The notes under the pieces are model-generated. The model had not been told where the DNA came from. It was given only the letters and a program-made list of their open reading frames with translations, and ran no database searches. 64,000 bases of DNA from a virus: IMG/VR virus record IMGVR_UViG_3300025012_000003. One strand, written 5' to 3'. Made by a program: the position numbers and the translations under genes. Shown piece by piece: positions 6,067-58,857 of the stretch. How positions within the stretch are numbered: position 1 is the stretch's first letter; the number at the start of each line of letters is the position of its first letter.

Positions 6067-6140
6067 TGGAGCGGGTAGGGAGAATCGAACTCCCTTCATC
6101 AGCTTGGAAGGCTGAGGCACAACCTATATACCATACCCGC
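6067..6140 (-). tRNA. tRNA-Gly(TCC)
   Basis: Cloverleaf, loop CTTCCAA, TTCGATT T-loop, CCA encoded. Confidence 0.95.
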
Positions 6141-6147
6141 TTAATAA

Positions 6148-6230
6148 TACAGGTGAGAGGATTTGAACCTCCACGCTTTTTAAGGCACGAGTGTCTAAAA
6201 CTCGCATGTCTACCATTCCAACACACCTGC
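6148..6230 (-). tRNA. tRNA-Leu(TAG)
   Basis: Loop TTTAGAC, long variable arm, no encoded CCA. Confidence 0.9.
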
Positions 6231-6242
6231 ATAGTATATAAA

Positions 6243-6316
6243 TGGCTGAGGAGATAGGAATCGAACCCATATTCACTGAGTCAAAGTCAGGTGTCCTGCC
6301 GTTAGACGACTCCTCA
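6243..6316 (-). tRNA. tRNA-Gln(TTG)
   Basis: Loop CTTTGAC, CCA encoded. Confidence 0.95.
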
Positions 6317-6327
6317 ATAATTAAAAA

Positions 6328-6402
6328 TGGCTCCCTCGGCAGGACTCGAACCTACAGTCATTCGATTAACAGTCGAACGCTCTACCATTGAGCTACGAGG
6401 GA
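6328..6402 (-). tRNA. tRNA-Asn(GTT)
   Basis: TCCCTCGTAGCTCAATGGTAGAGC..., loop CTGTTAA, CCA. Confidence 0.95.
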
Positions 6403-6408
6403 ATAAAA

Positions 6409-6480
6409 AGCCCTTTGTCAGATTTGAACTGACAACCTTCATCTTACAAGGATGTTGCTCTACCATTGAGCTAAAAGGGC
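6409..6480 (-). tRNA. tRNA-Thr(TGT)
   Basis: Loop CTTGTAA, no encoded CCA. Confidence 0.95.
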
Positions 6481-6483
6481 AAG

Positions 6484-6558
6484 TGGGTGGAAGGACGGGA
6501 CTCGAACCCGCTTTGCTTCGTTCACAGCGAAGGATATTACCCATATATGACCGACCAC
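6484..6558 (-). tRNA. tRNA-His(GTG), acceptor stem with two mismatches
   Basis: Loop CTGTGAA, G-1:C73, CCA. Confidence 0.85.
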
Positions 6559-6559
6559 A

Positions 6560-6633
6560 TGGCGGAACTATGGGGATTTGAACCCCAGACTTCTCGCAGA
6601 CAACGAGTAGTTTTACCCCTAAACTATAGTTCC
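6560..6633 (-). tRNA. tRNA-Asp(GTC)
   Basis: Loop TTGTCTG, CCA. Confidence 0.9.
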
Positions 6634-6640
6634 AAATATA

Positions 6641-6713
6641 TAGATACTGAGAGACTCGAACTCCCGACTTCCTCCGTGTAAGAGAGGCACTCTACCGACT
6701 GAGTTAAGTATCC
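6641..6713 (-). tRNA. tRNA-Val(TAC)
   Basis: Loop CTTACAC. Confidence 0.95.
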
Positions 6714-6714
6714 A

Positions 6715-6790
6715 TGGTCTAGGTGGAGGGACTTGAACCCCCGACTCCCTACGTCCAAGGTAGGATTTCTACCAACTGAATTACACCTAG
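6715..6790 (-). tRNA. tRNA-Pro(TGG)
   Basis: Loop CTTGGAC, CCA. Confidence 0.95.
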
Positions 6791-6801
6791 ATTATAATTA
6801 A

Positions 6802-6875
6802 TGGTGTTTCCTAGAAGAGTCGAACTTCTGTCTAACGCTTATGAGGCGACCGCTCTGCCGTTGAGCTAAGGAAAC
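6802..6875 (-). tRNA. tRNA(CAT), elongator Met or Ile2
   Basis: Loop CTCATAA, G1:C72 paired, CCA; isotype not resolvable by eye. Confidence 0.85.
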
Positions 6876-6876
6876 A

Positions 6877-6954
6877 TGGTAGCAGGAGTTGGATTTGAAC
6901 CAACGACCCCCAGCTTATGAGACTGGTGAGCTAACCAGACTGCTCTATCCTGCG
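6877..6954 (-). tRNA. tRNA-fMet-like (CAT)
   Basis: CGCAGGATAGAGCAGTCTGGTTAGCTC start, C1.U72 mismatch, loop CTCATAA, CCA. Confidence 0.85.
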
Positions 6955-6960
6955 ATAATA

Positions 6961-7034
6961 AGTACCTGATTGGATTTGAACCAACGACTACAGAGGTTGC
7001 AACTCTGCCCCTTAGACCACTTGGGTACAGGTAC
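6961..7034 (-). tRNA. tRNA-Cys(GCA)
   Basis: Loop TTGCAAC, U73. Confidence 0.9.
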
Positions 7035-7035
7035 A

Positions 7036-7110
7036 TGGTGGGAGTAGTAGGTACCGAGCCTACCTCTGGTGCTTTTCAGGCACCCGCTAATCCATCTCAG
7101 CTATTCTCCC
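7036..7110 (-). tRNA. tRNA-Phe(GAA), atypical T-loop
   Basis: Loop CTGAAAA; T-loop CTCGGTA; CCA. Confidence 0.85.
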
Positions 7111-7111
7111 A

Positions 7112-7197
7112 TGGTGCGTTGGGAAGGACTCGAACCTCCAAGTGATTATTAGTCGGGTGGGTTACAGCCACCTGCCATACCGTTAGGCGACCAACGC
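7112..7197 (-). tRNA. tRNA-Tyr(GTA)
   Basis: Loop CTGTAAC, long variable arm, CCA. Confidence 0.9.
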
Positions 7198-7202
7198 ATA
7201 TT

Positions 7203-7272
7203 TGGAGACAGTGGGAATTGAACCCGCTACAACGTCTTTGCAAAAGAAGTCCGCTACCTCAGCGTTATCCCC
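7203..7272 (-). tRNA. tRNA-Ala(TGC), short D-arm
   Basis: G3:U70 in GGGGATA/TGTCTCC stem, loop TTTGCAA, A73. Confidence 0.8.
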
Positions 7273-7274
7273 AT

Positions 7275-7545
7275 GACGGGAGGAGTTACCCTCCCCGACT
7301 TCTAGGCTACGAGAGCCATTTTACGTCCGAAATCTAAAGACACTGTGTTGTTTCCGTTTGTTGTTTTTGCTATTTTTAAAGAGAATGCCCTCTTACTTGC
7401 GAGTTTATCCCTACCTACCACGTCTAATCCACGCACCCCCATGGTGGAGGTGAAGGGAGTCGAACCCTTGTCCGCAACAGACATCAATAAACCTTCTACA
7501 AGTTTAGTCCAATTTGAAGAGTAGGACTTCTCACTAAATTTTCAA
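7275..7545 (-). ncRNA. ssrA: Circularly permuted two-piece tmRNA (acceptor piece ~7545-7442, coding piece 7440-~7275)
   Basis: ...GGACAAGGGTTCGACTCCCTTCACCTCCACCA precedes GGGGGTGCGTGGATTAGAC; G3:U70; helix-2 pairings ATAAAC/GTTTAT and GCAAGT/ACTTGT; tag frame AKTTNGNNTVSLDFGRKMALVA* (7370-7302); outer ends approximate. Confidence 0.9.
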
Positions 7546-35824: not shown

Positions 35825-36070
35825 TTAACCGAATATTCTCAAAGTTCTGTAATCATTATAGTTATACTTAATATCTTGATAAATAGGTTTACCCTCAGAA
35901 GTTTTTGATTTATGGGTAATAGTTTTAATAGTATCTTCTTTAAGATATATAGCTTCTACTGAAGGACTGACAATTATATTAACTTCTTTATTCTTAAGTT
36001 TAGGAACTATGCCTTCTTGTTTTTCTATTAGGCTTACTACTTGTCTTAATTCTGTTAAACTCAGATACAT
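35825..36070 (-). CDS. Hypothetical protein
   Basis: 81 aa ORF. Confidence 0.6.
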   Translation of the reverse strand: MYLSLTELRQVVSLIEKQEGIVPKLKNKEVNIIVSPSVEAIYLKEDTIKTITHKSKTSEGKPIYQDIKYNYNDYRTLRIFG

Positions 36071-36080
36071 AATTGTCTCC

Positions 36081-36425
36081 TTAATCTACATTTAATACCT
36101 GTAATATTCTGTTGAGTTCTGCTTCAACTCTCTCTTTGAATTCGTTAGCTACTTCAGCACAATCATAATCAAAAGCAGGAATCCAACCTTCTCTTCCATT
36201 TTTCATTCCACGTTTAGTACCTCTATAATCACTTGTAAAACAAGGTAGAGGTTTTATTGGTGATAGTTTATTAACTACTATATTCTGATTACCTATTAAA
36301 GTAACTACAATATTAACACAAGATATTAAATTATAATCCCCATCCTTATAAGTTTCTTTTTCAGTTGTAACAGAAATTACTGCTACTTTATTTATTATAT
36401 TATTAAATATCTTTTCATAATTCAT
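36081..36425 (-). CDS. Hypothetical protein, putative target of the adjacent ncRNA
   Basis: 114 aa, GGAGA SD. Confidence 0.7.
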   Translation of the reverse strand: MNYEKIFNNIINKVAVISVTTEKETYKDGDYNLISCVNIVVTLIGNQNIVVNKLSPIKPLPCFTSDYRGTKRGMKNGREGWIPAFDYDCAEVANEFKERVEAELNRILQVLNVD

Positions 36426-36461
36426 ATTGTGTCTCCATAATCTATTTCGGTACTAATAATT

Positions 36462-36490
36462 AATATAGCATGTATGAAATAAGAAGTCAA
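36462..36490 (-). promoter_or_regulatory. sigma70 promoter
   Basis: TTGACT-N17-TATATT. Confidence 0.7.
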
Positions 36491-36542
36491 CATATTGTTA
36501 AAATTTATTAAGCTAAAGGTTTACTAGCGAATTAAACATATT

Positions 36543-36820
36543 GAATATAAAGAAAAAGCTTGATACCTTGACTATTAGTCAGCGGGTGGCAAGCTTACAA
36601 GAAATAGATTATGGAGATAATTGTAATAAAATGTGGGATTTTGTATCAACACGTCCCTGAAACCCCACGAAAATCGAGCCGTGGAATAGAAAGCTACAAT
36701 CTACCACGCACTGATTCAATCCTTGAACCAGTGGCTAACCTGTTGGTAGTACTCTAAAGTTTTAAGTACCCGCTACCTCGGAGCACTGTACACATATAAT
36801 AGTCAAGCTTTCTTATATTC
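36543..36820 (+). ncRNA. Candidate structured ncRNA of unknown class
   Basis: ORF-free, nested inverted repeats and hairpins, plus-strand TTGAAT-N17-TACCTT promoter; strand inferred from G.U pairs. Confidence 0.5.
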
Positions 36821-36921
36821 TATTACATGCCGTTATACTATTACTATTGTTTTAAAGAAACTAATAGAACCGATAAACTATTAGAATGAGTGTATAGCAA
36901 TATAGAAGTTGTTATCGGTTT

Positions 36922-54790: not shown

Positions 54791-56050
54791 CTAAAGTATC
54801 TGGGAATCAATAAATTCTCGAGTAATTATACAGTCGTCAGGTTTCTTGTCAATGCGGAAATTCCAATCAATAGCTCTACAGTGGGACATTCTATTATTCT
54901 TTGAGCTAAAGTCCTGACCCTCACAAGCTAATACTAATCCTAAGTATTCAGGATTTAGTGTGGGATTTCCATCATTATCTAATATTGTCATCTTTCTTCT
55001 TAAAGAATCTGTTATACCAGATATAGTTCCAATCCATTGTTCAGTTAATAATTCATCTTCTTCCTCAACATAACAAGAAACTTTAATGCCCCCTATTAGA
55101 TTCTGTACTGCTAATGCTGAATTCTTTTTAGGAAAGATAGAACCAGAAATAAAACAATCTATATCTTCATTTTTACTTCCTGTTAGGGTTCTCTTCATCT
55201 TAACTTGAACATGTCTCTTACGTGAAGTAGTAGCATAGTATTGTTCATTTAAATTCTTTAATACTAATCCTTCTCCGCCATTAGCTACTATCCTATCAAA
55301 GAACTCTTGTTTATTTATTATAGTACTTTCGGGTAATTCAAAAGGAGTTATCCCGTCAATTTTTTTCATAAAGCTAGTTAATAGTTGTCTGCGTTGTCTG
55401 AGTGTTTTAATCTTTAAGTCTTGATTATCAAACTCCAACATATCAAATACACAAAACTTTAAAGGATTACCATCCATCTGAATTTCTACTGCTCTCTCCG
55501 CATGGGAACCCAATATAGAAACAGTAGCATTAAGCTCTGTAGCAGAGAATGTTCCTCCCCTAGAAGTAGTATCAAGGGTTTTATTAAATACAAGAACTTC
55601 TGCATCCAGTATAAAAGATTGTTTGAACATTCCCCTATAACTCTGGGGAGTTCTAACTCTTCCATCTTTAGTTATTAATAATATCTTTTCCGTATAACAA
55701 TTAGGCAGGAAAGTTATATCTGATATATCCCTAGAGAAAAATTCAAATCCCCAATCTGGATGATAAGTTATGATACATCTTAATCCATCAATCTTGACTT
55801 CTCCTAACCAATCCTCGGATGTCAAGATATTTTTTTGTTCTTCTGGTTTAAGTTCCTTAAAAGAAAAACATAATTGAGGAGTATGTAATTCAAACAATCT
55901 TTTATACATACCCCATGTTTGAACTTTAGGATATTTATTATAATAATCTATTCCCAATATACGTTCTAATTCTTTATTAGTAGTCTTAGGATTAGATGGT
56001 ACGGGTATCCCCCGTACCTTGAAGTGCTGTAGTATTTCCTCCTTTTTCAT
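54791..56050 (-). CDS. ATP-dependent DNA ligase
   Basis: EVKIDG (motif I), LDAEV, FCVFDML, EGLVLK, VKMK. Confidence 0.9.
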   Translation of the reverse strand: MKKEEILQHFKVRGIPVPSNPKTTNKELERILGIDYYNKYPKVQTWGMYKRLFELHTPQLCFSFKELKPEEQKNILTSEDWLGEVKIDGLRCIITYHPDWGFEFFSRDISDITFLPNCYTEKILLITKDGRVRTPQSYRGMFKQSFILDAEVLVFNKTLDTTSRGGTFSATELNATVSILGSHAERAVEIQMDGNPLKFCVFDMLEFDNQDLKIKTLRQRRQLLTSFMKKIDGITPFELPESTIINKQEFFDRIVANGGEGLVLKNLNEQYYATTSRKRHVQVKMKRTLTGSKNEDIDCFISGSIFPKKNSALAVQNLIGGIKVSCYVEEEDELLTEQWIGTISGITDSLRRKMTILDNDGNPTLNPEYLGLVLACEGQDFSSKNNRMSHCRAIDWNFRIDKKPDDCIITREFIDSQIL

Positions 56051-57456: not shown

Positions 57457-57484
57457 CCCTTCTCCTTTATATCATTCTTAATCC

Positions 57485-57513
57485 ATTATATCACAACATA
57501 GGTGATATGTCAA
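57485..57513 (-). promoter_or_regulatory. Consensus sigma70 promoter
   Basis: TTGACA-N17-TATAAT. Confidence 0.8.
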
Positions 57514-57519
57514 TCTAAA

Positions 57520-58857
57520 TTATACAACAATTTTAATTATGGTCTTATTAGAACAAAGTTTATCATGGCTCTTAGCATTATAAGCTTCTATCTCTGTAGT
57601 AACATCATAGCCTACAACATCTTCGTAATTTTGCAAGTCCACCTTAATTATATCTCTATTCTTATTCTTATAAAAGATTCCTATATTCTGAGAAGCTCTT
57701 CCCGATAATTGTAACCCCCTGTCAGAATAAGCGTTTTGACCACACATACTAGCTGACCTACTATAATTATCGGATACACAAGCTTCGTGTAAATGTCCAC
57801 TAAGTACATAGTCTATAAAAATTCCATCGTAAGCATACTTGGCTACAGCCTTCTTAATTCCATTAGCTAAGTCTGATTTAAATTGGTGCCCGTGAATTAA
57901 TAGAACGTTATTTCCAGCAACATCTATAACTTGTTCTAGGGGGTCTTCTAAATGGAAAGACACTGAAGAAGAACCCATGAATCTAGCATTTAACATATTG
58001 TACAACATTAAGTCATAGTTGTCTGAAGCTATAATATCTGTCCATGCAATATCTTTAGCCATACGAGTTTCATTACCTGTTACTCCACAAAAAGTAATCT
58101 TAAAATCCTTATTCAAGTCAAGTATGAACTGTGATAATAAACTTGTAGCAAGTAAGCAAGCTTTCATTCTATTAGTAGCATTGTTCAATAGTTTATCAAG
58201 AATATCATCTTTGTTAAGTAAATCCCCAGTAGAACAGATAGCAACACTCTTAATACCGTTTAATTTAAAATAACTAACTGCTCTTTCTGCTAACAACTTC
58301 AATCTCTTAGAAGCAATATGAAAGTCATATTTGTTATTTTTTAAATTAATTAACTCGTTGAAATGCAAATCAGATAGTTGAATGATACCCATACAATCAG
58401 AACTTACATTGGTATGTTTAATAGTTTTCTCAGATAACTTAATACTTTTTAATAACTGTATTAATTCTAAGTTAGATTCCTCTAACGCATTAGTTAATCT
58501 ATCCTCGTGTCTAATCCCCTTACGTTCTATTCTATTAATGTCTTGAAGTTTTTGAACCTTACGTCTTAATTGTATATTAGCAATTAAAACATCTTCATCT
58601 ACTTCCTTCTCTATGTCTTCTTTTAATTCTTGTTGTTTTTTCTTAGATAAATCAGAGGGGTATATTCCAGACTTAGATAATTCTAAAACTAACTTATCTC
58701 TGTATTCAGAACTAAAGAACATGTTAATATCATTAGTCGTATACTCATTAGATATCTCTCTTATCCTTTTTCTCCAGTAACTTCTTCCCCTGTATTTACC
58801 TTCTGAGATACACCCTTGATACAATAACTCAAAAAGATTTTCAAATTTTTCCATCAT
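57520..58857 (-). CDS. Calcineurin-like metallophosphoesterase with N-terminal helical region
   Basis: SDLH, TGD, GNE, IHGH, SGHLH. Confidence 0.8.
   Translation of the reverse strand: MMEKFENLFELLYQGCISEGKYRGRSYWRKRIREISNEYTTNDINMFFSSEYRDKLVLELSKSGIYPSDLSKKKQQELKEDIEKEVDEDVLIANIQLRRKVQKLQDINRIERKGIRHEDRLTNALEESNLELIQLLKSIKLSEKTIKHTNVSSDCMGIIQLSDLHFNELINLKNNKYDFHIASKRLKLLAERAVSYFKLNGIKSVAICSTGDLLNKDDILDKLLNNATNRMKACLLATSLLSQFILDLNKDFKITFCGVTGNETRMAKDIAWTDIIASDNYDLMLYNMLNARFMGSSSVSFHLEDPLEQVIDVAGNNVLLIHGHQFKSDLANGIKKAVAKYAYDGIFIDYVLSGHLHEACVSDNYSRSASMCGQNAYSDRGLQLSGRASQNIGIFYKNKNRDIIKVDLQNYEDVVGYDVTTEIEAYNAKSHDKLCSNKTIIKIVV

Follow-up and report, generated by a model that had tools for sequence, protein, structure and literature searches.

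In a large uncultivated phage, we identified a conserved structured noncoding RNA of ~290 nt, encoded on the minus strand at positions 36545..36836 of the window (the whole 64,000-nucleotide stretch analyzed here), which is set apart by a GC island, its conservation, its indels, and a consensus fold. Its expression and function are predicted only, and we consider it a likely new regulatory RNA of phages. It carries a 17-nt segment perfectly complementary to the leader of the next gene, a gene coding for a 114-aa protein, over the SD sequence. We tentatively propose, at rather less than an even chance, a 3'-UTR-type base-pairing RNA that would block the ribosome site of this gene and would resemble the phage c4 RNA in its action.

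We infer the ends of the RNA from the onset of conservation (~36836) for the 5' limit and from the end of the terminator U-tract for the 3' limit. A previous description of the region, made from the letters alone (the sequence-only reading), had presented it as GC rich, free of ORFs, and bracketed by inverted repeats, and these features held. The GC content is 0.44 to 0.49 within the element (positions 36650-36800) versus 0.21 to 0.30 in the flanks outside it, and the element is one of nine such GC islands in the genome, the tRNA bank being another. Three mechanical ORFs of 36 to 48 aa are present, but none is conserved, because the relatives carry 1-nt indels that break the plus-strand frame; in substance, the region is thus ORF free. 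The bracketing inverted repeats CTTGACTATTA / TAATAGTCAAG (36567-77 / 36797-807) and GAATATAA / TTATATTC are both present as described, as are all the inner pairings.

Relatives of the element were gathered by pattern scans together with look-ups of the neighboring proteins, which recovered it from about six contigs only, all of them metagenomic and from near-related phages. The identity of the RNA to that of the window is 96% in L002/L017/L023, 95% in L016 and L015/L021, and 91% in L030/L031, L030 being the most distant; the RNA is partial in L025, and the sequence of L028 begins at the U-tract. The RNA is 91 to 96% identical among relatives compared to 78 to 88% for the neighboring genes, and toward L030 the conserved block is 92.7% identical compared to 78 to 82% for the adjacent genes. 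This block runs through the RNA, the terminator, and the early promoter, with positions 36576 to 36449 identical in the window, L016, and L017, whereas the flanking gene cassettes vary. Upstream, the genes of 89, 104, and 55 aa are missing from L016 and L015, and L030 has instead a 56-aa ORF whose stop codon falls within the first bases of the conserved block. As these upstream surroundings differ, ~36836 is where conservation sets in across three distinct contexts. A further hairpin following the 89-aa gene (36868..36920, minus strand) lies outside the conserved block; it is variable, and the 56-aa ORF takes its place in L030.

The element matched none of the 4,227 Rfam families over positions 36545-36836, either at the gathering score or at an E value of ≤10, and its BLAST search against 50,697 phage records returned no match. 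Exact and degenerate pattern scans of viral contigs, metagenome contigs, and prokaryote genomes yielded only the same narrow clade or chance matches, and an nhmmer search of the genome found no paralogue, the element being single copy. No known aptamer family was matched in Rfam at an E value of ≤10, which speaks against a riboswitch, a T-box, or another cis-regulatory leader; the "riboswitch-like" label of the sequence-only reading was dropped on the same result, no riboswitch family being matched. Tandem direct repeats were not found in 36545-36836, and their lack rules against a type III toxin-antitoxin system (ToxIN-like).

The consensus fold of the four variants comprises 80 pairs, in which 99.7% of cells are paired, and the RNA is predicted to run from a closed multihelix 5' domain to two hairpins, then to an AU-rich unpaired stretch, and finally to the terminator. 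The 5' domain would be closed on the minus strand by the helix AGAAAGCU / AGCUUUCU (36806..36813 as the 5' strand, with 36688..36695 as the 3' strand), which holds the sole compensatory change, 36811 A->G with 36690 U->C, seen in L016, L015, and L030. Also predicted on this strand are an 11-bp hairpin at 36709..36733 and a 9-bp hairpin, AUUCCACGG...CCGUGGGGU, at 36662..36687, the latter invariant in all relatives. Substitutions concentrate in two predicted linkers, 36764-36757 and 36627-36621, a pattern expected for a structured RNA. Covariation is not significant, as 83 of 500 shuffles reach the observed score with 3 to 4 distinct sequences, owing to the small divergence among the variants, and it is too thin for a proof of the fold.

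The 3' end of the element is an intrinsic terminator (36545..36596, minus strand) made of a hairpin, 36596->36556, followed by UUUUUCUUUAUAU. The hairpin has a folding energy of -15 kcal/mol (z = -3.25), none of 200 shuffles folds as well, and a U5CU3 tract comes after it; as in Rho-independent terminators, a GC-containing hairpin is thus followed by a U-tract on the transcribed strand. A simple terminator scanner missed this hairpin because its stem has internal loops. The AAGCTT motif occurs at window positions 36556, 36591, and 36805, with an AGCTT at 36690-36694, i.e., three exact copies and one partial copy within 260 nt. This cluster is the densest of the genome (which has 90 copies in total versus 61 expected) and creates competing pairings inside the RNA. 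Two near-isoenergetic global folds are predicted, one with the terminator and one end-paired, in which the RNA ends pair together and the 5' arm of the terminator pairs with 36737-36690. The 17-nt segment is unpaired in both global folds, yet helix 1 lets the 5' end of the RNA cover its 3' half.

Just as the sequence-only reading had claimed, 36432-36448 and 36601-36617 form two 17-nt arms of 100% complementarity; a gap of 152 nt separates them, and no further zero-mismatch copies of the 17-mer occur in the window. It is the third longest exact inverted repeat in the 190-kb genome at gaps of ≤400 nt, and the longest arms in 20 second-order Markov simulations were of 12 to 16 nt. The 17-mer is beyond chance, by a narrow margin on length alone; its position adds weight, since it spans the next gene's SD and falls within an unpaired part of the conserved RNA. 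Two assemblies end inside the 152-bp spacer, L015 at window position 36495 and L028 at 36553, each ~105 nt past the nearer arm; these breaks could reflect coincidence, hairpin-induced graph tangles, or population heterogeneity.

On the RNA side, the anti-SD seed UCUCCAUAAUCUAUUUC (36601..36617, read 36617->36601 on the minus strand) is invariant in all relatives and is predicted to be mostly unpaired, with a mean unpaired probability of 0.79; it sits beside the variable linker 36621-36627. On the target side, the leader of the 114-aa gene, GAAAUAGAUUAUGGAGA (36432..36448, minus strand), has its SD, GGAGA, at 36436->36432 and its AUG at 36425, and the seed is complementary to positions -25 to -9 of this ~29-nt leader, GGAGA included. 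The 17-bp seed/leader duplex has a predicted energy of -23.2 kcal/mol, and the leader ranks first among the 339 initiation regions of the genome (-25.3 versus a mean of -11.8, standard deviation of 3.6). The runner-up predicted target is close (-24.7), since any anti-SD pairs with many ribosome sites. A read-through transcript is predicted to form the 17-bp helix in cis (z = -5.3). Between the arms lies an early sigma-70-type promoter (36462..36490, read 36490->36462 on the minus strand), with TTGACT, a 17-nt spacing, and TGcTATATT, of the phage class TTGACA...TGnTATAAT, and it is 100% identical in the window, L016, and L017. Such host-type early promoters, TTGACA...TGnTATAAT, are numerous in the phage genome.

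Covariation of the 17-mer with the adjacent UTR, to which the sequence-only reading had looked as a check of the pairing, was not seen: the RNA side is invariant, whereas the complementarity of the leader falls from 17/17 to 9+5 and then to 6+4 nt. The 17/17 match is confined to sequences that carry the 114-aa gene. The leader of an 81-aa gene keeps 9+5 nt (-14.5 kcal/mol) in L016 and L017, and in L030, a 10-nt insertion leaves 6+4 nt of complementarity. In G001, the record with L017, no other target with ≤1 mismatch was found, the best other site having 2 mismatches. Since relatives keep the seed and lose the complementarity, and since G001 has no near-perfect target, pairing with the neighbor cannot be the conserved function; judging from these comparisons, the conserved function of the RNA must extend beyond this single leader contact. 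The comparison among relatives speaks for a recent origin of the perfect match. As the match is limited to the cassette-carrying lineage, either the new gene came under the control of a preexisting RNA, or exchange at a leader motif that recurs produced the match incidentally.

The 114-aa gene (36081..36425, minus strand) is an accessory cassette absent from L002/L017, L016, and L030. Where it is missing (L017, L016, and L030), the promoter and the leader are joined directly to the 81-aa gene (35825..36070, minus strand), the conserved downstream neighbor, which in relatives stands directly behind them. A leader motif, ..AAAU(G)UAGAUUAWGGAGACA..AUG, recurs between accessory genes (window 36065-36094 and 36419-36452; L016:4931-4960). 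The 114-aa cassette is bounded by two similar copies of such leader motifs, and relatives without the gene carry a hybrid leader, which suggests that the cassette may be gained and lost via recombination at the motif. The 114-aa protein belongs to no Pfam or PHROG family and has no Atlas match, and its only two homologues are 98% and 54% identical. Its AlphaFold2 (AF2) model, of low confidence (pLDDT of 63), predicts a beta-sheet and a C-terminal helix and has no fold match in PDB or BFVD; the protein is polar and is not a small hydrophobic peptide. The 54%-identity homologue (L029:62-1082) overlaps the end of an HNH endonuclease gene on an unrelated contig without such an RNA, and this location is consistent with a mobile accessory cassette.

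In the base-pairing model that we tentatively prefer, the RNA would most likely be the 3' end of the upstream transcription unit, which would stop at its own intrinsic terminator, given that no phage-consensus-type promoter precedes the RNA. The next gene would be transcribed from its own early promoter, and the seed would pair with the resulting leader, including the SD. The RNA would hence block 30S binding and silence the 114-aa gene, either in trans on the promoter-derived mRNA or in cis on a terminator read-through transcript. The sequence features, including the complementarity, can be read directly from the analysis, as can their conservation, the evidence for the strand, and how accessible the seed is predicted to be; transcription, the RNA ends, and repression are what we infer.

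Several features of the element recall 3'-UTR-derived small RNAs of the CpxQ, DapZ, and SroC type, namely its place at the end of a unit, a shared terminator, a seed that is single stranded just upstream of the hairpin, and the lack of a dedicated consensus promoter; unlike them, it is much longer, more structured, and phage encoded, with no phage Hfq. In T4-type phages, PeSL cassettes consist of a terminator stem-loop and an early promoter and flank shuffled ORFan genes. The element similarly has an invariant terminator and early promoter block between cassettes that vary among close relatives, but it is single copy, with ~230 nt of extra conserved structured RNA ahead of this block, a part absent from PeSLs. 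The c4 RNA of P1/P7, encoded by the phage on the strand of its target, blocks translation through pairing of exposed segments with the ribosome-binding region of the downstream antirepressor (ant) mRNA (PMC12197685). Like c4, the element lies on the same strand as its putative target and upstream of it, and an exposed segment is complementary to the ribosome-binding region (17/17 over the SD). However, it is no match to the Rfam C4 covariance model (P1/P7 c4 and P4 CI), even at an E value of ≤10; it is ~290 nt long versus ~77 nt for c4 and offers one 17-nt contact instead of two short loop contacts. Moreover, c4 shares the transcript of its target and is processed from it by RNase P, whereas a terminator and a separate promoter lie here between the RNA and the target, and there is no immunity context in this virulent-looking phage without a detected integrase. 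The element thus appears closest to c4 in mechanism and is not a member of the C4 family.

The virus record is complete, has direct terminal repeats, and measures 190,151 bp, of which the window covers bases 63994-127993. The record has a GC content of 31% and a cumulative GC skew that drops steadily over its full length. The phage has T4-like replication genes, and the minus strand carries all genes near the RNA element. Serine/tyrosine recombinase, resolvase, and integrase families had no match in the complete phage genome; with no integrase found there, the phage looks virulent. Hfq was not found among the phage-encoded proteins. The reverse transcriptase family RVT_1 was not matched in the genome, and TnpB had no confident match, a lone weak subthreshold zinc-ribbon match lying ~76 kb away. 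A retron msr-msd and a TnpB-IscB guide RNA were both set aside, as no adjacent reverse transcriptase or nuclease accompanies the element. At window 6067-7534, the minus strand carries a bank of 15 tRNA genes and, right behind it, a two-piece, permuted tmRNA (98 bits with Rfam tmRNA_permuted), whose ARAGORN-predicted tag ends in ...MALVA. Other minus-strand ORF-free gaps of 200 to 860 nt occur several times genome-wide, e.g., at 110545-111357 and 121818-122675 (window numbering, past the window end). The longest exact inverted repeat of the genome at gaps of ≤400 nt is of 19 nt with a 261-nt gap (window 55609-55627 / 55889-55907) and sits within a predicted ATP-dependent DNA ligase gene (54791-56050). 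Two identical 18-bp palindromes, TGTAACCTATAGGTTACA, lie 15 nt apart at genome positions 57483-57533, ~6.5 kb before the window start.

A serious alternative, possible and in our view somewhat unlikely, is that the minus-strand RNA is real and has its conserved job elsewhere, as a bistable terminator/antiterminator, as a protein-binding RNA, or as a trans-acting RNA with other (possibly host) targets, the 17-nt match being a by-product of cassette exchange at ..UAGAUUAWGGAGACA... The invariance of the seed while the neighboring leader decays fits such a role, as do the two similar leader motifs that flank the 114-aa gene and the hybrid leader of the relatives, which is what recombination predicts. 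The two near-isoenergetic folds, only one of them with the terminator, and the AAGCTT cluster (three copies plus one AGCTT within 260 nt, the densest of the genome) point in the same direction. However, a 17/17 match falling exactly on the SD, in an unpaired part of the RNA, is unlikely to be a pure by-product, and 9+5 nt of complementarity to the adjacent leader remain in relatives. No riboswitch or antiterminator family was matched, and control by read-through seems unnecessary, because the downstream gene has its own strong promoter.

A specific switch can be imagined in which the AAGCUU-type palindromes would toggle the RNA between a terminated form, i.e., a free anti-SD RNA, and an antiterminated form silencing the next ribosome site in cis, thus coupling transcription of the upstream operon to translation of the captured accessory cassette. 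We regard this as improbable. A comparison of the mutually exclusive terminator and antiterminator structures gave two near-isoenergetic folds, with no covariation separating them, and the downstream gene has a promoter of its own.

That the element acts at the level of DNA seems very unlikely. The 17-bp arms would then be recombination sites around an invertible promoter (36449-36600), or the whole would be a miniature mobile element or a recombination hot spot. Perfect 17-bp inverted repeats do flank a strong promoter, 152 bp apart, long inverted repeats mark the ends of the element, the flanking cassettes vary, and two assemblies end inside the spacer. Against an invertible promoter, the complete genome holds no serine/tyrosine recombinase, and all the spacer-spanning assemblies found share a single orientation. 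Moreover, the repeat is imperfect or nearly absent where relatives keep the promoter block, the element is single copy in the genome, and an inversion would part the conserved RNA from its terminator.

The sequence-only reading had offered two options, a plus-strand guide or decoy, which it preferred, and a minus-strand anti-SD; our analysis favored the second. The evidence favors the minus (gene-sense) strand, the same as that of all the genes, because of the terminator at the 3' end, the lower folding energy, and the loss of the plus-strand promoter in L030. Only the minus strand has the terminator hairpin with its U-tract; the plus-strand counterpart of this hairpin would be 5'-terminal, and no local terminator was found on that strand. 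The consensus fold reaches -68.9 kcal/mol on the minus strand versus -61.0 on the plus strand, and all four variants fold better on the minus strand, by 2 to 11 kcal/mol. The window-specific changes at 36714 and 36712 bring a full pairing gain only on the minus strand, and the outer repeat GAATATAA/TTATATTC is broken in L030. G.U pairs had been taken as a sign of the plus strand; in the hairpin 36709-36733, the reverse applies, as the minus strand forms a G.U where the plus strand has an A-C mismatch.

A plus-strand RNA, antisense in orientation and copying the leader so as to act as a decoy or to target the template DNA as a guide, is very doubtful, slightly more so than an element acting as DNA. 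Its proposed promoter, a weak TTGAAT-17-TACCTT match at 36541-36569, reads GTGAGC at the -35 box in the most distant relative, L030, and has a poor -10 box beside the phage consensus promoters. Compared with shuffled controls, the plus strand, too, has a lower folding energy (z = -2.2), yet its fold is the weaker one in 4/4 variants, and the small plus-strand ORFs are not conserved. A contrary sign comes from the L030 substitutions at 36768 and 36583, which, provided that the helix AGCGGGUG/UACCCGCU exists, would remain paired as G.U on the plus strand alone; as for 36768, a G.U->G-C change in a minus-strand hairpin (helix 4) accounts for it equally well.

The least credible reading, to which hardly any weight can be given, is a type I toxin-antitoxin system in which the RNA would counteract a toxic 114-aa protein. 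In tisB/istR-1, zor/orz, and shoB/ohsC, a nearby nonoverlapping RNA has short perfect complementarity to the ribosome site of the toxin, and the element shares both this placement and the ~17 to 21 nt of perfect complementarity to the 5' UTR or ribosome site, but its tandem same-strand order differs, most relatives (L016, L017, and L030) keep the RNA but lack the gene, the 114-aa product, with its predicted beta-sheet and C-terminal helix, is not a small (<60 aa) hydrophobic membrane peptide as type I toxins are, and the distant homologue in L029 stands beside an HNH gene without the RNA.

To our knowledge, hardly any regulatory RNAs have been described from large virulent phages. If the base-pairing model is true, a lytic phage would use a sense-strand, terminator-bounded RNA to silence an accessory early gene by acting on the ribosome site of this gene, and the block formed by the RNA, the terminator, and the promoter would be a fixed docking point for the exchange of gene cassettes. 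Should the match be incidental, a conserved new structured phage RNA would remain. If the model holds, the element would provide a testable example of newly acquired phage genes coming under existing posttranscriptional control.
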